DNA from: an uncultured Clostridia bacterium
GTDB lineage: Bacteria > Bacillota > Clostridia > Oscillospirales > Acutalibacteraceae
DNA: 64,000 nucleotides
Direction: 5' to 3'
Assembly: GCA_904420015.1 (NCBI GenBank)
Contig: CAJFTS010000033.1
Location: forward strand, 66,523 to 130,522
Below are positions 1,155 to 53,998 of this stretch, piece by piece; within the stretch, counting starts at the first letter, position 1, and the number at the start of each line of letters is the position of its first letter. A program made the position numbers and the translations under genes. The notes under the pieces are model-generated. The model was not told the origin of the DNA. It saw only the letters and a program-made list of their open reading frames with translations, and did no database searches.

Positions 1155-2996
1155 CTACAAGGTAAAATCGCTCCGATCCTGGCGGAAATTCGGATTGTAA
1201 TAGGGGTCTCCCTTGGCAATCCATTCCTTCCACCTCTGCTGAAACCGGCGTTCGTCCTCCTGGAATCCGCCGACCAAGCCCCCGTCTCCCTTTGCGGTAT
1301 GGCGGTAAAGCTGGGCATAGGGGGTGAACACATTGTGCTTTCCAGCCCTGCGCAGACGCAGGCAAAGGTCCACGTCGTGGTAGGCCCCCTCATACTCCTC
1401 GTCAAAGCCGCCCAGCGCATCAAAGGATTCCCTTGCAAGCATCAGGCATTCCCCCGACACCGCGCTGAAATCCTGCGCGTACATCAGGCGGCCCACGTAC
1501 CCCAGATTGCCCCGCGCCGCCCGGTAATGCGCCCGGCCGACGCTGCCGCGGATCCCGATGAAAAGGCCCGCATGCGCAATGGTATGGTCGGGAAAGTACA
1601 GCTTTGCACCCACTGCCCCCACGTCCTCCCTCTGGGCATACATGAGCATTTCTTCCAGCCATTCGTTCGAAAGAACCTCGGTATCCCCGTCGAGGAATAC
1701 CAGGTATTTCCCCTTGGCCTGGCCGGCGGCAAGGTTCTGCGCCGCCGGACGGGAAAGGGAAGCGTCCCAGTCCACAACCCGCAGCTGCGGCCCGGCGGGG
1801 AGCGGACTCTCCTCAAAGGAGCCGTCCTTTGTCAGCAGAAGGATTTCGATTTTCGGATAGGTGGTCTTTTGCCGGATGGAACGAATGCACCGGGCAAGGG
1901 CCTGCCTGTCTCCGGTCTCGGTAAGGACAAGGGAGATCAGCGGCATTTCCTTGAGGGTATATGCAATCCGGTAAAGCAAAGGCGCATCCGGCGCTTCCAT
2001 CGCCTTTCCCTCGATTCCCATCCGCTTGAGATAATCGTTGAGGGCACGGATTCCCGATGTGATGCAGTAGGGCTTAACGCTGATGTCTCCCGCCGTAGAG
2101 CCCGCATGGCTGCGCCAATAGTAAAGAAGCTTCGGGATATGGGCAACATGCCGGGCCTTGGCGGTCAGGCGCAGGATTATTTCAAAGTCCTGGCTGCCGT
2201 CGTAATCAGAGGAGAAATTCCCCACCTCGTCGAGCAGGGCGCGGCTGAACACGGAAAAGTGACAGATATAATTGTTGGACCGCAGATTGTCGATGGCAAA
2301 ATCCGGCTTAAAATGGGTGGAGACCGGCTTCTTTCTATCGGTGGAAAAGGTCATTTCATCGGTATAGATGAAATCGGCCCCCTGCTCCTCAATCACCTTT
2401 CGCACCTCATACAGCGCCGCCGGATGAAGCAGGTCGTCATGATCGAACAGGCCGATGTAATCGCCGTCGGCCATGGCGATGCACTGGTTGGTGTTCCCCG
2501 ATATCCCGAGGTTTTCCGCAAGCGCCTGATAGCGCACCCGCGGATCCTCTTTTGCATACCGGCGGCAGATTTCCCCGACATAAGAGTGGGCCTCGTCGCT
2601 GCCGTCGGCCAGGCACAGCTCCCAGTCCCGATAGGTCTGTTCCCTGACTGAATCGATCATCTCTTTCAAAAAGGGTTCGGGGGTATTGTACAGCGGGACC
2701 AGAACGCTGAACTTGAGCGGACGGCTGAAAACCGCCCCTTCCTGCCGCCGGCGTTCCTCCTCGGTGAAGCGGTAACGCTGCATAAATTCCTTTTCCCGCC
2801 TGAGCCGGTATTGCCGGCTGCTCACCTTTTGCAGGGTGGCGCGCAGCCCGTTGTCTTTGAGAAAATAGATCCCCTTCCGGGCCATCCCGGCCAGGCCGCC
2901 GGAATAAAGCCGTTTCGGCGCCCCTTGCTCCTTTTGGGAAGGGACGGCGGCGTTGGATTTGGCGGGGTAATCCCGTTCGTCCTGTTTCAACTGCAA
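1155..2996 (-). CDS. Two-domain glycosyltransferase family 2 protein
   Basis: FSVLVPLYNT..LADGSD..LFDHDD in domain 1; LVFLDGD, AVSGECLM, DVDLCLR in domain 2. Confidence 0.9.
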   Translation of the reverse strand: MQLKQDERDYPAKSNAAVPSQKEQGAPKRLYSGGLAGMARKGIYFLKDNGLRATLQKVSSRQYRLRREKEFMQRYRFTEEERRRQEGAVFSRPLKFSVLVPLYNTPEPFLKEMIDSVREQTYRDWELCLADGSDEAHSYVGEICRRYAKEDPRVRYQALAENLGISGNTNQCIAMADGDYIGLFDHDDLLHPAALYEVRKVIEEQGADFIYTDEMTFSTDRKKPVSTHFKPDFAIDNLRSNNYICHFSVFSRALLDEVGNFSSDYDGSQDFEIILRLTAKARHVAHIPKLLYYWRSHAGSTAGDISVKPYCITSGIRALNDYLKRMGIEGKAMEAPDAPLLYRIAYTLKEMPLISLVLTETGDRQALARCIRSIRQKTTYPKIEILLLTKDGSFEESPLPAGPQLRVVDWDASLSRPAAQNLAAGQAKGKYLVFLDGDTEVLSNEWLEEMLMYAQREDVGAVGAKLYFPDHTIAHAGLFIGIRGSVGRAHYRAARGNLGYVGRLMYAQDFSAVSGECLMLARESFDALGGFDEEYEGAYHDVDLCLRLRRAGKHNVFTPYAQLYRHTAKGDGGLVGGFQEDERRFQQRWKEWIAKGDPYYNPNFRQDRSDFTL

Positions 2997-13122: not shown

Positions 13123-13370
13123 GCCGCCATTCCTCCATCCCTATCGGTCTTTGTTGTTTATCAAATCACACACTTCCCGTCTTGTATGAAAATGCAGAAT
13201 TTATTATTAGTTTACCATGTTTTCTCTTTCCTCACAATGCGCTCGGGGCAATTGTTCGAAAAAGTTTACATAATGGTCATTTGTCCTCTATTTTATGAAG
13301 AGGAAGGCCCATTTGTTCTGAAAAATCGCCGAAAAATCCGAAAAAGATTCCATCGGCAAAGCGCACAAAA

Positions 13371-13620
13371 GGCAAAACCACCGGCTTTGCCGGAGGTATG
13401 AAGCGCCCTAGAAGGGCTTATTGCCAGCAAGCGTCTCAAGATGCACGGAAATTTATTTCACTGGCATGACTTGCCCCGCGGCCTGTAAACAGGAGAATCC
13501 CCATTTTAACCGGAAGCCCCCCGTCACCGTTAGGCCGGCTCTTCGCAGCCCGCTTCCCTCGATGCTTATAGCGAACGCTTTTTTGCGGGACATCTCTGCC
13601 GGCAGAGCCGGTGGTTCCCG
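13371..13620 (+). mobile_element. Non-coding palindrome-ended repeat, copy A (IS200/IS605-like non-autonomous element)
   Basis: Colinear with 43394-43645 and 45461-45710; terminal hairpins accaccggc-ttt-gccgg and gccggc-aga-gccggtggttccc. Confidence 0.75.
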
Positions 13621-13684
13621 TTAAAGGAAGGACGGCGGCAAAAGCCAAGCCGCCGCCGTCCTTCTTTTTTCTCCTGCCGGCAAA

Positions 13685-13722
13685 AAATCCCCCTGATTTT
13701 GTATGAATACAAAATCAGGGGG
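13685..13722 (-). terminator. Terminator hairpin downstream of cysK
   Basis: tccccctgattttgta-tgaa-tacaaaatcagggggat inverted repeat with an A run on the left (U tract on minus strand). Confidence 0.75.
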
Positions 13723-13748
13723 ATCGCAGACACAATGAAAACCGCCGT

Positions 13749-14681
13749 TTATTCGGCGAACAGGCCGGTGGAAAGATACCGCTCTCCGGTATCCGGCAGG
13801 AGGACGACAATGGATTTGCCCGCATTTTCCTTGCGTTTGGCCACCTGAGAGGCGGCGAAAAGGGCAGCGCCGGAGGAGATGCCGCACAAAAGCCCTTCGG
13901 CGGCGGCCAGCTTGCGGGCGGTTTCAAAGGCGGCCTCATTGCCGACCGGAATCACCTCGTCGATGAAATCCCGGTTGAGCAGCTGCGGCACAAAGCCGGT
14001 GCCGATCCCCTGGATTTTATGGGGGCCGGGCTGTCCGCCGGAAAGAACCGGGGAAGCGGCCGGCTCCACCGCCACGATTTTCACCGCCGGGTTCTTTTCC
14101 TTGAGCGCCTCGGCCACGCCGGTGATGGTCCCGCCGGTGCCCACCCCTGCGACGAAGAAATCCACATGGCCGTCGGTATCCCGCCAGATTTCCTGGCCGG
14201 TGGTGTGGTAATGCATCCGGACGTTGGCGGGATTGGTAAACTGGCCCAGCGTAACCGCGCCGTCGATTTCCTTTCGCAGCTCCTCCGCCTTTTCGATGGC
14301 GCCTTTGATACCCCTGGCGCCTTCGGTGAGCACCAGCTCGGCGCCCAGCGCCTTGAGCAGGCTGCGCCGCTCCAGGCTCATGGTATCCGGCATGGTGAGG
14401 ATGACCCGATAGCCCTTAGCCGCCGCAATAAAGGAAAGGGCGATACCGGTATTTCCGCTGGTAGGCTCGATGATGGTAGAGCCGGGGCCGAGGACACCTC
14501 TGGCCTCCGCGTCGGCAATCAGGGCGTAGCCCAGCCGGTCCTTGACGGAGGAAAGGGGGTTGAAGCTTTCGAGCTTGGCAAGCAATCTCCCTTCGGCCTC
14601 CTCCCGCCGGGCATACCGGGAGAGATCGAGAAGGGGGGTGTTTCCGATCAGCTGGGTCAGGTCTTGTGCAATTTTCGGCAT
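13749..14681 (-). CDS. cysK: Cysteine synthase A
   Basis: IGNTPL, SVKDR (PLP lysine), [28 protein letters not shown]. Confidence 0.96.
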
Positions 14682-24188: not shown

Positions 24189-24413
24189 GTCAAAACCACC
24201 CGTTTTACGGGTGGTTTTCCTAAGCCCCCGGAGGGGTCGGGCTTTGCCGCCCCGCCTAACCCCCAAAAGGGGCAGGGAGACATCGAACCGTTCGCCCTGT
24301 AAGTGGGAAACCAGTTGCAGCGCTCTCATTCATCCGATTCCGTTTGTCTGACTACCGGCTTCTGCTCTTTTCTTTCCCGAGGCTTTTTCCCTACCCCCGG
24401 TAGAACCGGGAGG
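24189..24413 (+). mobile_element. Divergent copy (E) of the palindrome-ended element
   Basis: gtcaaaaccacccgt-ttt-acgggtggt left hairpin, aagcccccggagggg second hairpin, ccccggt-aga-accggg right hairpin. Confidence 0.55.
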
Positions 24414-24427
24414 ATGCTGTAAGCGAC

Positions 24428-24471
24428 AAGAAAAAGGCACGCGGCTTTAAAAAGCCGCGTGCCTTTTTCTT
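24428..24471. terminator. Bidirectional terminator
   Basis: aagaaaaaggcacgcggctt...aagccgcgtgcctttttctt perfect inverted repeat. Confidence 0.85.
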
Positions 24472-34689: not shown

Positions 34690-35385
34690 AAAGTTCCTTT
34701 TCGGACAGAGGATGCAAAGGGTGTCTCCTATTTCCCTGCCGATTGTTCTTCCCGCTTTTCCGGCCGCAGCCTTTGTACAATCCTTTTGCGGTTTTGAACG
34801 CTTTGCACGGCTTTTGTAATTCCAAGATCCCATAGTCAAAACCAATACAACGGCAAAGCGGCCGGGCCGGATCGTGCCGAAGCCAGCCTATCCGCGCCAA
34901 GCGTGTCACAAAGCACGGCATTTTGTCCCTCTTGCCCCACAGCCTGTAACAGGCGGCCATCGCTGCGCCTTCTGCTTTTCTGCCCGGCCGCGGCTGTTCC
35001 ACCCCCTTGCGGCGGAAAGGAAACCGGTTTTAGCGGCGCCTCATTTCTGCCGGCGCCGTTCTCCGCAAATCAAAACCAGCAGGGGCGGAAGGGCACAGTT
35101 GCCAGAAGGGAGGGAAGATAACGGAGGGGTAATGGATTGCGAAGGGGTGCCCTGCGCCGTCCCGTCAATGGGGAATCCCCCCTCCGGTTCCGGCAGTTGA
35201 AGCACAACCTGCCATCTTCCGCATTGCAAAAACGGATCCTTTTCCGCAACCCTGATGCCAAAGCTTTCACCGTCCGAAACCAGAACCAGGGGGACATCCT
35301 GTTGCCTGCTGGCAAGAATCATAACCACCGGCCGTGCCGGTGGTTTGCACAGGCCCCCTTAGGGCCTTTTGCCAGCCGAGCCTAT
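34690..35385 (+). repeat. Head-to-tail array of degenerate palindrome-ended elements (unit starts ~34835, 35069, 35318, plus a partial unit before 34835)
   Basis: (g/a)tca(a/t)aacc starts 234 and 249 bp apart; interior blocks colinear with copy C. Confidence 0.6.
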
Positions 35386-35588
35386 AGGCTCACTAATAAT
35401 ATTTCTTTTGCATGTGGTGCCCCATTGCTATTAAAAATAGCGGTGGGGTGTATCCCTTTCAGTTTTCCATATCTTTCATGCTCTGCCATTTTGTTTTTGT
35501 AACGTTTCCTCGCTTCGCTCGAATATTTTTTCTGGGCATCGCTAAACGCTTTTTGGAACCACCAGCACAGTTGATGGTATTCTATAAC

Positions 35589-35632
35589 AAAAAAACCGCG
35601 CGCTTCCAATAAAAGAAAGCACGCGGTTTTTC
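35589..35632 (-). terminator. Terminator downstream of DHHW gene
   Basis: aaaaaaaccgcg.gctt...aagc.cgcggttttt inverted repeat. Confidence 0.75.
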
Positions 35633-35651
35633 TTTTTTCCGTGATCGTCTT

Positions 35652-40291: not shown

Positions 40292-41503
40292 TTACTCCTC
40301 CATACCGAGGCCCTGGTTGATGGTATAGAAATTTTGAATCTGCGGCTCCACTTCCACCTGAATGGATAGCTGCGGGTAGAGGGACTCCCAATCTTCCTTC
40401 ACCCGTTCCCATTCGTCCGGATCGCTGCGGTAAAGGTGATCGGCGAGGCCAAGATAATCCACGCCGTCCGACTGGGATTGGGCAATGACCCGCTCCATCT
40501 CCCCTTTGAGCTGGTTGGTTAGATCCTCCTCCAGCGCATGAAGGGTCTCTTCGGTAAAGCGCAGCTCCTCTGCTTTCGGGTTTGCATTGTTGCTGACGCG
40601 TTCGGTAATGTTGGCGGTCAGGTCGACACGAAAGGTAAACGCCGGCTTTCCATCCTTGGTATCGGTAGAAAGCTCCACGCTGGAATTGAGCAGCTGGGCC
40701 GACATTTTCCCAATGTCCTGGGCGTTTATCACCGCCACCGAATACTCAAACCGCCCGGTCAGCAGATTAAACGCCTTCGCCCCATCCTCCTGTAGGAAAC
40801 GTATCAGCTTTCCGTCATGGAATATGCCGTATCCGACCAGTGAGATGGTGGCGGGGCCGCCTTTGGACTCCTCCTGCTTTGCAATGGTGACGGCGGGCAG
40901 GATGGGGACCAAGGTTTCCTCCTCCATGGCCTGCACCACCTGGCGCATCTTGACTTCACTGGAATAGGACATCTCCCCGGCATCGAGCAGCAGCGACTCA
41001 ATGGCCTCAAAGGAGGTGGCGCCGTCGTCGCTGTCGCAGCGCAGGACTTCCTCAGCCGTCGTGTCCTTTGCCACCACGATATGCAGGTCCATCCGCATGT
41101 CCTGGTTGCGGGTGACAAAATCGATGTATTTGGCCAGATCCTCCCTCGCAGCCGCTTCTCCTATGACGAGCAGATCGGTCTGCCCCAGGTAGACGGTGTT
41201 GCTTGAGAAAGTCTGGGCCTTCTTGACCGCTTCGTAAAAGGTCTCCCCATCGCTGACGATCACGTTGTTGATCTCCTCGGTGGACCCCTGCAGGCTTTCC
41301 TGGTCCCGGCTCATAGCCGGGGCAAAGGTTATCCGCATCCCGCCGCTGCCGTCCTCCAGCTGATCCACGCCGATGGCCTGCACCACCGTTTTGCGGGTAA
41401 TCTCTTCCCGCCTCGGCATGTTGGTTTTACTGCCGGCATTGACGGAAAACACCAGGGCAAAGACAAAAAGGCTGCCCAGGAGCGCTTTGGTATTCCGTTT
41501 CAT
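40292..41503 (-). CDS. Spore germination receptor C subunit (Ger(x)C)
   Basis: VVQAIGVD, VYLGQ, IGEAAAR, DYLGL; no clear lipobox Cys. Confidence 0.82.
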   Translation of the reverse strand: MKRNTKALLGSLFVFALVFSVNAGSKTNMPRREEITRKTVVQAIGVDQLEDGSGGMRITFAPAMSRDQESLQGSTEEINNVIVSDGETFYEAVKKAQTFSSNTVYLGQTDLLVIGEAAAREDLAKYIDFVTRNQDMRMDLHIVVAKDTTAEEVLRCDSDDGATSFEAIESLLLDAGEMSYSSEVKMRQVVQAMEEETLVPILPAVTIAKQEESKGGPATISLVGYGIFHDGKLIRFLQEDGAKAFNLLTGRFEYSVAVINAQDIGKMSAQLLNSSVELSTDTKDGKPAFTFRVDLTANITERVSNNANPKAEELRFTEETLHALEEDLTNQLKGEMERVIAQSQSDGVDYLGLADHLYRSDPDEWERVKEDWESLYPQLSIQVEVEPQIQNFYTINQGLGMEE

Positions 41504-42984
41504 CCCTTTGACACCCGCCTTGTCTTATTTTTGTTTCCTAAAAATTCCGGCCGTTTCTTATCCTGTACAAAGGGCCGGCGGAAATAGCTGTCCTTCGTCT
41601 TGGTGTGCCCCCCGATCAGCGGCGCCATATAGGGCACTCCCAGTACCTCTAGGCTGCAGATGCGCAGGGTCAGCAGGATTGCGCCGATCACCAAGCCCAC
41701 CAGCCCCAGCATCCCGCTGAAAAGGAGCAGTACGAACCGCCACACCCGCACGGCGTTGCTTAAGTCCTGGCTTGGAAGGGTAAAGGAGGCAATGGCGGTG
41801 ATGGCCACCACAATGACCACCGCCGGGGAGATCAGCTTGGCGCTCACCGCGGCCTCGCCGACGATAAGCGCGCCCACAATGGAGACCGCCTGGCCGATGT
41901 TCTTCGGCATCCGCAGGCCTGCTTCAATGAGCACCTCAAAGGCGATAAGCATGACAATCATTTCAATGATTTCGTCAAACGGGACCTCCAGCCTGGCCTT
42001 CATAATGGATTGCACCAGCCTGGAGGGGAGCATCTCCTGGTGAAAGGAGAGGATGGAAACGTAAAACCCGGGCAAAAGCAGCGTTATCCCCATCATAACA
42101 AAACGAAGCACCCTTATGGCGGAGGCAAAAACCGAATGGCGGGCGTAATCCTCCGGCGCCTGCATCTGCTGCAGGATGTTCCCGGGCACCAGAAGGGCAA
42201 AGGGAAAGCCGTCGATGATGATACCGATATAGCCTTCGTTGATGTCGGCACAGAAGGAGTCGGGCCGTTCGGTGTTGGTCACCTGGGGAAAGATGGAGTT
42301 GTCGTCTCCGCAGAGGGCCTCCTCCACAATACCCAGGGAAGAGATGGAATCCACGTCCAGCTTGGACAGGCAATCCTTTGCCCGCTGGACCAAGGCGTCG
42401 TCCGCCGTATTTTTCAGGTAGACAACGGCGATGTTGGTCTGCGACTGACGCCCCGCCAATACCGATTCCACGACGATGTCGGGAGAATGCAGCCGGCTGC
42501 GTACCAGGGCGGTATTCATCAGCCAGCGCTCTACAAAGGCGTCCTTTCCCCCCTTGGTGATGTTTTCATTGGTGGGCTCGGTCACGCTTCGCACAAAGGT
42601 GGACTTGATCTCAAAGGTGTAGGCATCGGCGGCGCCGTCGAGAAAGAGCGCCGCACTGCCGGTCAGCATCTGTTTGATGATATCGTCGGCCTTTTGCTGT
42701 TTTTTCTGGTCGGGGCAATAGATCCCGCCTCCGTCAATATAGGCGAAAAGGTCCCCGGCGGTGGCGTCGGCGGCGAACCGGTGCTCCACCAAAGAACGCA
42801 TGACCAGCTCGCTGAGCTGGCCGGAATTGATCATTCCGTCCACAAAGGCAAACGCCCCGCGGAATTTCTGCCCAATGAGAATGGGGCGCACGCGAAAATC
42901 GCTGTTCCTTTGAAGGCGGTCGCAAACCTCTTCAAAGAGCGGCGTTTTATGCTGAAAGTTGGCCTTTTTCTTAAAATCCTCCAC
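41500..42984 (-). CDS. Spore germination receptor A subunit (GerA)
   Basis: FVDGMIN, RSVTEP, TERPD, AVSIVGALIVGEAAV, GVPYMAP; start GTG 42984 behind GGAAGGG. Confidence 0.92.
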   Translation of the reverse strand: MEDFKKKANFQHKTPLFEEVCDRLQRNSDFRVRPILIGQKFRGAFAFVDGMINSGQLSELVMRSLVEHRFAADATAGDLFAYIDGGGIYCPDQKKQQKADDIIKQMLTGSAALFLDGAADAYTFEIKSTFVRSVTEPTNENITKGGKDAFVERWLMNTALVRSRLHSPDIVVESVLAGRQSQTNIAVVYLKNTADDALVQRAKDCLSKLDVDSISSLGIVEEALCGDDNSIFPQVTNTERPDSFCADINEGYIGIIIDGFPFALLVPGNILQQMQAPEDYARHSVFASAIRVLRFVMMGITLLLPGFYVSILSFHQEMLPSRLVQSIMKARLEVPFDEIIEMIVMLIAFEVLIEAGLRMPKNIGQAVSIVGALIVGEAAVSAKLISPAVVIVVAITAIASFTLPSQDLSNAVRVWRFVLLLFSGMLGLVGLVIGAILLTLRICSLEVLGVPYMAPLIGGHTKTKDSYFRRPFVQDKKRPEFLGNKNKTRRVSKG

Positions 42985-43049
42985 GGCCGTCCCTTCCTTT
43001 CCTTCAAAAAAGCGCCCCGTAATTCCCTGCCGTCGGCGCATTCTGTCTT

Positions 43050-43079
43050 TATTGTGTACGGCTTTCGGGCCAAACATGC
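43050..43079 (-). promoter_or_regulatory. Candidate sigmaG/F forespore promoter for ger operon
   Basis: GCATG-18 nt-CACAATA resembles GCATA-N17/18-CATACTA. Confidence 0.45.
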
Positions 43080-43143: not shown

Positions 43144-43393
43144 AGCTGATGCGCCACCCACAGCTAAGAACGGCGGCTTCCATTGGCCCTGGAAGGGCCT
43201 TTTCCCGGCCGCCGAAAACCTTTTGCCGCTGAAATCCAATGTCCTTTCTCCCGCGAACGGGCTATTTGCCCTCGAACGCATCGTTTTGCTCATACACGCA
43301 CTTTTGATTAGCGGCCCGCTTCGCTCAAGCCTGGAAGCGAACGCTTTTTTGCTGGATTTTGCCGCCTTCAAAGCCGGCGGTTCCCGAAACAAA
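43144..43393 (+). mobile_element. Partly degenerate copy (B') of the palindrome-ended element
   Basis: ggcggctt...ggccctggaagggcc left motifs; last 83 bp match copy B at 80/83. Confidence 0.6.
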
Positions 43394-43645
43394 GTCAAAA
43401 CCACCGGCAAAGCCGGCGGCTTGAGTAAGCCCTAGAAGGGCTTATTATCAGCAAGCGTCTTAAGACGCGCGGAAATTTATTTCCCTTGCATCACTTGTCC
43501 CGTAGCCCGTAAACAGGCGAATCCCCATTTTAACCGAAAGCCTTCCGTCACCGTTAGGCTGGCTGTCCGCGGCCCGCTTCGCTCAAGCCTGGAAGCGAAC
43601 GCCTTTTTGCTGGATTTTGCCGCCTTCAAGGCCGGCGGTTCCAGA
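43394..43645 (+). mobile_element. Palindrome-ended element, copy B
   Basis: gtcaaaaccaccggcaaagccgg start; interior colinear with A and C. Confidence 0.75.
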
Positions 43646-43706
43646 AACAAAAAGAAAAAGCCCGCGGAACACAAGTCCCGCGGGCCCTTTTTCTTTTTTC
43701 TCCGGC

Positions 43707-45256: not shown

Positions 45257-45278
45257 TCTGATGTCGGAGGCGTATTTT

Positions 45279-45491
45279 ATGGCAGACAATCTTGCTCGCT
45301 TCACCTTGCGAATTTCCCCATATCTATTAGAAAAGCTTACTGTTGTCGCCGACTACAATGGCCGCACCAAAAACAAGGAAATTGAATGGCTCATTCGCAA
45401 TTGCATAAAAGAATATGAGAAGGAATTCGGCGAAATTAAGAGTTCTCATTCCGCTATCGAGTCAAAACCACCGGCAAAGCCGGAGGCATGA
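45279..45491 (+). CDS. Arc-like ribbon-helix-helix DNA-binding protein
   Basis: RFTLRISPYLLEKLTVVADYNGRTKNKEIEWLI; ATG 45279 behind GGAGG. Confidence 0.8.
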   Translation: MADNLARFTLRISPYLLEKLTVVADYNGRTKNKEIEWLIRNCIKEYEKEFGEIKSSHSAIESKPPAKPEA

Positions 45492-45710
45492 ATCGCCCTA
45501 GAAGGGCTTACTACCAGCAAGCGTCTCAAGACGCACGGAAATTTATTTCCCTTGCATCGCTTGCCCCGCGGCCCGTAAACAGGCGAATCCCCATTTTAAC
45601 CGGAAGCCTTCCGTCACCGTTAGGCTGGCTGTTCGCAGCCCGCTTCGCTCGATGCTCAAAGCGAACGCTTTTTTGCGTGACATCTCCACCGGCTAAGCCG
45701 GTGGTTTCCG
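45461..45710 (+). mobile_element. Palindrome-ended element, copy C (best preserved)
   Basis: gtcaaaaccaccggc-aaa-gccgg ... ccaccggc-taa-gccggtggtttcc. Confidence 0.78.
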
Positions 45711-45780
45711 TTCCCAATAAAATAAGCCACGGTAAACCGTGGCTTATTTTATTGGGTGTAAGAATGGCTTTTTCCCAGCA

Positions 45781-53243: not shown

Positions 53244-53367
53244 GACCAAATAATGAAGCGGACCCGATTTCTCCCTGCAAAGCCGCCGTCTTTTTCTCCT
53301 TCTTCCTCCCAGGACACGGGCAAAACCCCCGGGAGGGGCCGTCCTGCCGGGAGGGCCGCCCTTGTAA

Positions 53368-53583
53368 GTCATAAGCCACCGGCTTTGCCGGCGGCTTGAA
53401 CCGGCCTTATAAGGGCCGATTACCGGATGGGTCTCAAGGCGCTGGAACAGCGGCCGGACGTTTAGGGGCAGCAGGGCGAGTGAAGCGGGCTAAAGCCTTC
53501 ATCCCTGATAACTCCCTTCGCCCGGCGCTTGCAGCGAACGCTTTTTACGGGGCGCCTCAGCCGGCATTGCCGGTGGTTTCCCT
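53368..53583 (+). mobile_element. Palindrome-ended element, copy D (same ends, different interior)
   Basis: gtcataagccaccggc-ttt-gccggcggcttgaa start; gcgaacgcttttt...gccggc-att-gccggtggtttccc end. Confidence 0.65.
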
Positions 53584-53671
53584 TAGCAAAAAAACGGCGG
53601 GGACAACACCAGATTGTCCCCGCGCCTTTATTCCGGATTCATTCAAATCCCGTTGAGAGAAAAACAGCTTG

Positions 53672-53878
53672 TTAGCCGTTGTTCTTAATGCCATCCTCGT
53701 AAGCCTTGATCATTTTCTTGACCATCTGGCCGCCGACGGAACCAGCCTGACGAGAGGTCAGGTCGCCGTTGTAACCCTGCTTGAGGTTCACGCCCACTTC
53801 GCTGGCGGATTCCATCTTAAACTTATTGAGGGCCTCGCGGCACTCCGGCACTACTAAATGATTGCTTCTGTTAGACAT
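53672..53878 (-). CDS. alpha/beta-type small acid-soluble spore protein
   Basis: ALNKFKMESASEVG, GDLTSRQAGSVGGQMVKKMI. Confidence 0.95.
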   Translation of the reverse strand: MSNRSNHLVVPECREALNKFKMESASEVGVNLKQGYNGDLTSRQAGSVGGQMVKKMIKAYEDGIKNNG

Positions 53879-53998
53879 AATCGTGTTACACTCCTTAAAT
53901 CGATTTGAAAAATTTCTTTTGCGTTTGCAATCATAGTGTACACCGATCATCTACAGATATAAGAAGAAATTTTTTGGTTTGTTTCCAAATAAAAGAAC

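Follow-up and report, generated by a model that had tools for sequence, protein, structure and literature searches.

The repeats in the DNA studied here, a 64-kb stretch that we call the window, are very probably non-autonomous miniature derivatives (PATE/MITE type) of an IS200-group insertion sequence (IS) of the IS200/IS605 family; we put the probability of this reading at about 0.9. Their ends are homologous to those of elements that carry tnpA, their hairpins covary, the flanking motifs are fixed, all copies in the window share a single orientation, and the elements are multi-copy and polymorphic between strains. The earlier note on this DNA had proposed non-autonomous elements of the IS200/IS605 type resembling PATEs, and this proposal is borne out by autonomous relatives of ~720 bp, which carry the same end module together with a Y1_Tnp, IS200-family TnpA.

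Three colinear copies with a set of shared motifs had been described before, and all of the motifs could be read at the places given. By repeat search and alignment, the copies span 13370-13622 (A), 43394-43646 (B) and 45460-45712 (C), and the gap-free identity to A is 74% for B and 89% for C. The description of copy A needed two corrections, as it starts with GGCAAAACC instead of GTCAAAACC and its third hairpin contains a G-T pair (GCGTC..GATGC). The family itself is larger than these three copies, as shorter repeats pointed to further members at 35322, 43155 and 53373. A family profile HMM searched against the window matched six full copies (A, E, B0, B, C and D) on the + strand at E = 1e-69 to 5e-29, and two further weak matches, at 24198-24426 and 34834 to ~34990, were recognized on reading as a variant (copy F) and a decayed remnant (relic G). 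The window thus holds at least eight members (A, B0, B, C, D, E, F and relic G), all matched on the + strand. The interior is common to A, B and C, and B0, D, E and F have other interiors within the same end architecture. The core palindrome CCGGCNNNGCCGG, with one mismatch allowed, was found 36 times against 8.5 expected, a number reached in no shuffle, so its abundance is not due to chance. The copies, of 220-270 bp, contain no transposase ORF. The earlier statement that the window lacks a transposase was confirmed by tblastn with three TnpA sequences, which detected no Y1 transposase in the 64 kb (best E = 0.011, a 24-residue match). The features are as follows, where the strand is that of the IS (tnpA-sense) orientation unless indicated.

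13370-13622, minus strand: copy A, defined by repeats, alignment, profile and hairpin comparison.
13378-13396, read on the + strand: IS right end of copy A, AGGCA followed by the hairpin at these positions (7/8 pairs, with an A-A mismatch).
13405-13417, 13431-13444 and 13482-13493: hairpins 2, 3 and 4 of copy A.
13551-13584: left-end module of copy A, CGCTTCCCTCG..AGCGAACGC and a T-run.
13596-13614: IS left-end hairpin of copy A, with 6 pairs and 2 G-T.
13630-13672: an example of the flanking intrinsic terminators (hairpin and T-run), preceding copy A in IS orientation.
24198-24426, minus strand: copy F of a variant subfamily (nhmmer E = 0.005 for the left end only, the remainder read by eye), with the hairpins AACCACCCG-tttta-CGGGTGGTT and CCCGG-tagaa-CCGGG; CAAG and a terminator hairpin come next on the + strand.
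34834-34990, right boundary uncertain, minus strand: relic G (profile match, E = 8e-4), which starts with AGTCAAAACCA; it has lost its terminal hairpin, and hairpin 4 (GCCTGTAACAGGC) can still be made out.
35317-35587, minus strand: copy E, with a different interior (profile, alignment), a perfect 10-bp IS right-end hairpin (AACCACCGGC-cgt-GCCGGTGGTT) and a weakened IS left-end hairpin (ACCACCAGC-aca-GTTGATGGT).
43150-43389, left boundary approximate, minus strand: copy B0, which has a decayed IS right-end hairpin and forms a tandem with B.
43393-43647, minus strand: copy B, whose right end and interior are of the A/C type and whose left-end module is of the B0 type.
45459-45715, minus strand: copy C, which interrupts a small RHH-type ORF (45261-45491) at its final codons.
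53366-53586, minus strand: copy D, short (221 bp) and with a different interior.
~24431-24470, 35591-35640, 43653-43700, 45716-45763 and 53590-53630: the other flanking terminators.

The deviating right end that had been noticed in copy B is of the type carried by its neighbor B0, a copy previously overlooked. On the + strand, the last ~90 nt on the right side of B are 93% identical to those of B0, which explains why B differs there from A and C. The spacer between B0 and B consists only of CAA (43390-43392), exactly TTG in IS orientation.

Relatives with a transposase gene were found in a viral contig collection, in which the left-end module, searched as the pattern CCGGCNNNGCCGGNGGNNTG..GCCNNNNNAGGGC, matched 21 contigs. 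In about 10 of the 21, the module is followed by an antisense ORF of 150-156 aa, and the whole unit is ~720 bp long with a second hairpin at its far end. The ORF product matches Pfam Y1_Tnp ('Transposase IS200 like') at E = 1e-41 and NCBIfam transpos_IS200 with 153 bits (153.5; cut-off 55), and shows homology to TnpA of IS608 and of ISDra2, whose structures have been solved. Judging from their sequences, the ~720-bp elements are IS200-group elements with tnpA only and neither tnpB nor iscB.

We compared the ends by using profiles built from the autonomous elements only. The right-end profile matched copies B, C, A, D and E over 77-110 nt at E = 2e-20 to 7e-12, and the left-end profile matched E and C at E of ~2e-5 and ~5e-5, covering the right ~60 nt on the + strand. 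The left 80-110 nt of copies A-E on the + strand are homologous to the non-coding right end of the autonomous elements, and a middle segment of ~50-75 nt is the sole subfamily-specific part. The earlier idea that the interior of ~190 nt is a non-IS sequence and might be a functional RNA in its own right is accordingly not supported. The window copies are gene-less counterparts of the tnpA elements, and therefore what had been called the left end is the IS right end; in tnpA-sense the elements lie on the minus strand, opposite to the orientation first assumed. In support, contig L090 carries a tandem array made up of a miniature's end, one full-length IS and one complete miniature, and its full-length and miniature forms have the first ~95 and the last ~55 nt in common.

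No autonomous partner with the ends of copies A-C turned up in the collections scanned. The viral scan for an A-C-type hairpin 3 together with a tnpA 3′ end gave 0 hits, so that no autonomous element with exact A-C-type ends was recovered there, and the A-C-specific hairpin-3 segment likewise gave 0 hits in the metagenome scan. The miniature-type left-end module retrieved only miniature elements and two chance hits from the viral scan, and the module CGCTTCGCTCG..., typical of miniatures, is present in none of the autonomous elements found. In metagenome X1, where the organism is at ~10x, no contig was ≥80% identical to the L090-type tnpA when compared over the tnpA 5′ third; by the same comparison, other chicken-gut samples do contain L090-type elements.

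Read in IS orientation, the 5′ flank of the elements consists of an intrinsic-terminator hairpin and a T-run ending in (A/T)TTG. The left-end head that follows is 10-11 nt long in the window type (e.g. GGAACGGAAA) and ~25 nt in the L090 type; as it is inherited with the subfamilies, it belongs to the element. The left-end hairpin, CCACCGGC-nnn-GCCGGTGG, is followed ~12-20 nt inward by a small palindrome, AGCNAANGC or more generally AGC(T/G)AA(A/C)GCT, which changes symmetrically and occurs in the covarying variants AGCTAAAGCT, AGCGAACGCT, ACTAAAGT and GGCTAAAGCC. Miniatures then carry CGAGCGAAGCG, the reverse complement of the CGCTTCGCTCG seen in the window, and the subfamily-specific middle of ~50-75 nt. 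The tnpA gene is missing, and the IS right end is a non-coding region of ~110-135 nt with four hairpins, finishing with hairpin-NNN-TGAYT. This long four-hairpin right end is kept in both the autonomous and the miniature forms. The multiple alignment puts CCCGTAAACAGG at right-end hairpin 4, a position occupied by other hairpins in other subfamilies; the segment could represent either this hairpin or the final codons of tnpA, at which the autonomous elements encode DPFTG by GACCCGTTTACGGG.

The terminal hairpins appear from sequence comparison to be local structures kept by compensatory changes, the signature of IS200/IS605 sub-terminal hairpins. Among 29 metagenome miniatures, the right-end hairpin occurs as CCACC/GGTGG, CCTCC/GGAGG, CCGCC/GGCGG, CCCCC/GGGGG and CCACCAGC/GCTGGTGG, such that position 3 is A-T, T-A, G-C or C-G and position 6 is G-C or A-T, with a constant left-end hairpin (CCACCGGC/GCCGGTGG). 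The mean number of Watson-Crick pairs is 7.85 and 7.62 of 8 within the two local hairpins and 5.8 between the ends, the latter value being lowered by register shifts in some rows. Hairpin 3 also has three pairs with compensatory changes. In the autonomous elements L035, L036 and L040, the two end hairpins differ from each other and each is a perfect local palindrome, as exemplified by L035 (CCTCCGGC/GCCGGAGG vs CCACCAGC/GCTGGTGG). None of the window copies has two perfect terminal hairpins, and for this reason they may be fossils.

To define the insertion site, the flanks of 79 unique complete copies with enough flanking sequence were compared. TTG is located at a fixed distance from the hairpin across these copies. 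A strict terminator-like site, defined as a GC-rich stem followed by at least 5 T in 8 nt, is present in the IS-sense 5′ flank of 43/79 copies and in the 3′ flank of only 3/79 and 4/79 (two strands). At the other end, TGACT terminates all of the commonest end sequences tallied from the 79 copies, and TGATT or TGCCT is found in some window copies. The flanking terminator hairpins lie outside the element, since their sequences are unrelated between copies. Copy D is directly behind the terminator of the minus-strand SASP gene 53672-53950. Removal of copy C (45459-45715) joins ...TCC GCT ATC G to CA ATA AAA TAA and restores the in-frame TAA of the RHH-type ORF just before its terminator. This restored stop is consistent with element boundaries immediately after TTG on one side and immediately after TGACT on the other, positions which we infer to within 1-2 nt. 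No flanking direct repeats were found at the copies, in agreement with the earlier observation that the window copies show no target duplication. Taken from these sequences, the insertion target would almost always be the TTG at the end of a terminator T-run. As a natural data set, the copies cleanly illustrate the target rule of an IS200-group element, and they fit a 2026 survey in which IS200/IS605 showed the strongest enrichment of terminator-like sequences directly upstream of ISs (PMC13548323).

By analogy with IS608 and ISDra2, a Y1 HUH transposase (TnpA) made elsewhere would bind the two sub-terminal hairpins on one DNA strand while this strand is single-stranded at the replication fork, and would excise the element as a single-stranded circle. 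The circle would then be inserted 3′ of a short target ending in ...TTG, without duplication of the target. Because this TTG would mostly be situated at the T-run end of an intrinsic terminator, copies would pile up behind terminators in intergenic DNA. The copies could subsequently become substrates for homologous recombination and gene conversion, which would generate mosaics, tandem arrays and synteny breaks exactly at element borders. On this model, we infer that the window copies were mobilized in trans by a single-strand mechanism. As a rule from the IS608 work, the active strand lies on the lagging-strand template. All eight window copies are on one strand, and the GC skew of the + strand is mostly negative, a value confounded by gene orientation; as weak evidence, this fits the IS-sense strand being the lagging-strand template.

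The elements are abundant in the organism and beyond it. In three chicken-gut metagenomes, Logan contigs are 25-100 times as deep within the element as in its unique flanks, which suggests roughly 25-100 copies' worth per genome, an upper estimate to which related species in the samples may contribute. The miniature-type left-end module was detected at no fewer than 120 metagenome loci, many of them labeled human gut. Among the 120 matches listed, 92 have the second hairpin 200-250 bp away; the remaining matches listed are at a contig end, shortened or with variant hairpins, and none is full-length. One relative resides in a plasmid-like record of Subdoligranulum variabile (Oscillospiraceae; OY725837.1) that bears no annotation, and the elements were likewise unannotated in the other public records examined. 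The right-end pattern gave a single match in 185,579 species genomes, a chance match inside a Pygmaiobacter membrane-protein gene. Metagenome assemblies from the chicken gut and from other gut samples contain proteins encoded in the window, as does the MAG GCA_944384935.1.

Strains carrying the window region differ at the elements. Copies A, C and E were seen in all strains examined; between strains their sequences are mosaic, with 92-100% identity, and the proteins encoded in the flanks are identical. B and B0 each occur in some strains only: L014 has B0 without B, and L013 has B without B0 and a different neighbor (CorA). In L005, copy A has recombined with another copy and acquired a new right flank, and in L172, copy E has a different flank that starts exactly at the TGATT end. 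These strain differences fall exactly at the element borders. They are evidence that the elements have recently been sites of rearrangement, through recombination and perhaps also through a transposase; for the B/B0 polymorphism, homologous recombination would be a sufficient explanation. The search for empty sites in related strains, proposed in the earlier note, yielded no clean one in the strain contigs around A, B/C and E or in the divergent-run contigs over copy C, and the SASP gene beside D returned only 500-bp contigs when used as a query.

It is very improbable that the copies constitute a multi-copy family of independent structured small-RNA genes with their own terminators, in which the end-to-end stem is a closing helix. 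They do fold better than shuffled sequences (RNAfold, z = -3.5 to -4.9) with a ~20-bp terminal stem, several internal hairpins covary, an A-tract and a GC hairpin follow every copy on the + strand, and copy A is covered by metatranscriptome contigs. However, the downstream hairpins are unrelated in sequence between near-identical copies, and those after B, D and E read as terminators that belong to convergent genes of the minus strand, on which the T-run lies. The repeat unit begins sharply at TCAWAACC with no shared promoter, the sequence changes preserve the local hairpins but break the end-to-end pairing, and both ends are homologous to tnpA-bearing IS200 ends. Two RNA-directed checks proposed in the earlier note lent the idea no weight either: in the Infernal comparison with Rfam, HEARO included, no family matched anywhere in the whole window at its gathering score, only terminator look-alikes appearing at E up to 10, and the metatranscriptome contigs over copy A, which are shallow, were no deeper than those of the neighboring genes. 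A structured RNA with a long closing stem had been our first idea and was rejected on comparative grounds. Integron attC sites were also considered, and their core-site motifs do not fit. Still harder to sustain is the reading of the copies as PATEs that supply a guide-RNA scaffold (omega RNA or HEARO-like) to a TnpB or IscB encoded elsewhere. PATEs of the IS605 type often carry omega RNAs (PMC10055086) and the interior of the copies is structured, yet neither HEARO nor IS605-orfB matched the copies at E up to 10 or 5, and all autonomous relatives found are ~720 bp long with tnpA only. The structure belongs to the non-coding tail that follows tnpA, and it is on the other strand from the one on which a resemblance to HEARO/IscB RNA had been noted; this resemblance is not upheld, given the missing Rfam match and relatives that have tnpA but neither iscB nor tnpB.

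A classical MITE with ~20-bp terminal inverted repeats, moved by a DDE transposase through double-stranded cut-and-paste, would account for the reverse complementarity between AACCACCGGCnnnGCCGG at one end and CCGGCnnnGCCGGTGGTT at the other. The sub-terminal hairpins previously reported do exist, but the claim that terminal inverted repeats are absent must be qualified, as the near-identical end palindromes also read as an inverted repeat of ~20 bp. The inverted repeat simply follows from the presence of one and the same palindrome at both ends. In the autonomous relatives, the end hairpins diverge independently and each stays a perfect local palindrome, and the sole gene of these full-length elements encodes a Y1 HUH transposase. 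The flanks of the copies are asymmetric, with TTG on one side and TGAYT inside the other end, and the target site is not duplicated; we consider a DDE origin highly unlikely. Co-option by the host deserves somewhat more weight but is still unlikely: like REP/BIME, the IS200 derivatives would serve as terminator boosters, insulators or stabilizers of mRNA 3′ ends, or would give an art200-like antisense RNA that restrains TnpA. The copies consistently adjoin terminators, are kept at the same sites in all strains sampled and belong to a widespread, conserved miniature lineage. IS200 itself has a left-end hairpin that acts as a bidirectional terminator and makes the antisense sRNA art200 (PMC4513863), and the miniatures have a hairpin with a T-run (GCTTCGCT..AGCGAACGC-TTTTTT) antisense to the tnpA 5′ side. 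The position at terminators is, however, equally explained by the choice of TTG after a T-run as the target and by the neutrality of such sites, and the hairpin mismatches and mosaic changes are expected of drifting selfish DNA. The covariance model of STnc490/art200 (Rfam RF01405) had no match on the window copies; its sub-threshold matches (22.9 and 25.3 bits; gathering score, 56) all came from the full-length element of L090 (5′UTR), and expression at copy A, in shallow contigs, does not exceed that of its neighbors. It is similarly doubtful that the miniatures form a distinct, old, horizontally spreading lineage with a module of its own, CGCTTCGCTCG..AGCNAANGC and a T-run, and possibly an acquired function.

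As non-autonomous derivatives of IS200-group elements, the repeats can be placed among known systems. The autonomous relatives resemble IS200 of Salmonella and IS1541 of Yersinia in length (~720 bp), in carrying tnpA only and in their TnpA of 150-156 aa (Y1_Tnp/transpos_IS200), the anatomy of IS200 being taken from PMC4513863. In contrast to the IS200 group, the window elements have no tnpA and possess a long right end (~110-135 nt) with four conserved hairpins, and the hosts are gut Clostridia (Oscillospiraceae such as Subdoligranulum) rather than enterobacteria. PATEs, non-autonomous IS200/IS605 derivatives described in Haloquadratum, Halanaerobium and Geobacillus (PMC3119063, PMC7290912, PMC10055086), are likewise short and gene-less, bear only hairpin-containing ends and are presumed to be mobilized by TnpA in trans; the PATE-like element of Halanaerobium is 271 nt long. 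The PATEs described are mostly derived from IS605-type elements bearing tnpB and often contain omega RNA, whereas the window family derives from the tnpA-only IS200 group, shows no omega-RNA signal and belongs to a lineage that is very abundant over many gut metagenomes (≥120 loci). REP/BIME and REPIN sequences with their RAYTs are also high-copy intergenic hairpins, often near gene ends, that are associated with a Y1 HUH enzyme related to IS200 TnpA (PMC3333891, PMC3116915). However, REPs are ~20-40 nt and REPINs are pairs of ~100 nt, while the window units are 220-270 bp with distinct IS ends, and the TnpA of the ~720-bp elements scores 36.8 bits on REP_Tyr_transpos, below its cut-off of 80. 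The likeness to HEARO/IscB omega RNA and IS605-orfB is confined to a structured non-coding region beside an IS200/IS605-family end; unlike HEARO (RF02033) and IS605-orfB, the copies have no covariance-model match, and their structured segment is downstream of tnpA and kept as DNA or RNA hairpins.

The repeats are an ordinary, already known kind of bacterial selfish DNA and not a new RNA gene, and these data leave unchanged what is known of how IS200-type elements work. Within this kind, they are a new, abundant PATE-type member derived from tnpA-only IS200-group elements of gut Clostridia. If the miniatures were indeed a separate lineage with an acquired function, their module could give an art200-like antisense RNA restraining TnpA, or a REP-like terminator or insulator retained by gut Oscillospiraceae, and the symmetric covariation of the small palindrome would mark a site acting at the protein or RNA level. 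For annotation, the eight stretches in the window, and the roughly 25-100 copies' worth that contig depth suggests for the genome, should be labeled as IS200-derived non-autonomous elements and not as RNA genes. The elements break metagenome assemblies, with many contigs ending inside copies, and they mark recombination and synteny breakpoints between strains of this chicken-gut species.

Two members of this family of gene-less, IS200-type mini-elements lie in the window beyond those listed in the earlier note, a variant (copy F) and a decayed relic (G), and copy C overlaps a small ORF. The features considered here are as follows.

24198-24426: copy F, a variant whose hairpin sequences differ from those of the other copies; the copy is followed, as elsewhere in the family, by CAAG and a terminator
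34834-~34990: relic G, a decayed family member 330 bp upstream of copy E
41500-43077: GerA-family spore germination protein (Pfam label)
45261-45491: small ribbon-helix-helix (RHH)-type ORF
45459-45715: copy C
53672-53950: small acid-soluble spore protein (Pfam label)
13570-13579, 43336-43345, 45660-45669 and 53533-53542: small palindrome inside the IS left end

The palindrome lies 12-20 nt inward of the left-end hairpin and is also present in the public contigs L035, L030, L040 and L090. Its variants across subfamilies are AGCGAACGCT, AGCTAAAGCT, ACTAAAGT, GGCTAAAGCC and GCTTAAGC. As the changes between subfamilies are symmetric, this sequence suggests a conserved hairpin or a putative dimeric binding site.

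Copy C supplies the final 8 codons and the stop codon of the RHH-type ORF, with an overlap of 33 nt. When copy C was deleted in silico, the ORF regained the end ...SAIAIK-TAA. A left flank resembling that of copy C, ..AAATTCGCTGACGAGT|CAAAACC, was found in several chicken-gut contigs. These contigs may represent the same site in a related species, or else the insertion may also be present in a paralog of the gene.

Miniature elements were also found joined to full-length, IS200-like elements. At L085 780-2043, one of each is fused tail-to-tail with a single right-end hairpin in common. At L090 500-1700, a full-length, tnpA-bearing IS stands in tandem between two miniature elements, the units being separated by only 1-2 nt plus TG of the target. 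The L090 contig gave two matches to the Rfam family STnc490 (art200), the antisense sRNA of IS200, at 1167-1275 (minus strand) and 542-662; they scored 22.9 and 25.3 bits, both below the gathering threshold of 56. Within the full-length element, one match falls at the tnpA 5′UTR and the other, oddly, at the right end.

The host is a spore-forming member of the Clostridia, because the window encodes the GerA-family germination protein and the small acid-soluble spore protein. Subdoligranulum variabile harbors MITE relatives of its elements.

Many viral and metagenome contigs (viral L021, L023, L026, L027, L029, L031 and L033) stop within 50-200 nt of an element hairpin, which is most simply explained by assembly breakage at the repeat rather than by true genome termini. 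We compared window regions 13370-13760, 43150-43700 and 35300-35600 with the strain contigs L005, L013, L014 and L172, and synteny between strains breaks exactly at the element borders or within the elements. The element copies are recombination hot spots in this chicken-gut species.
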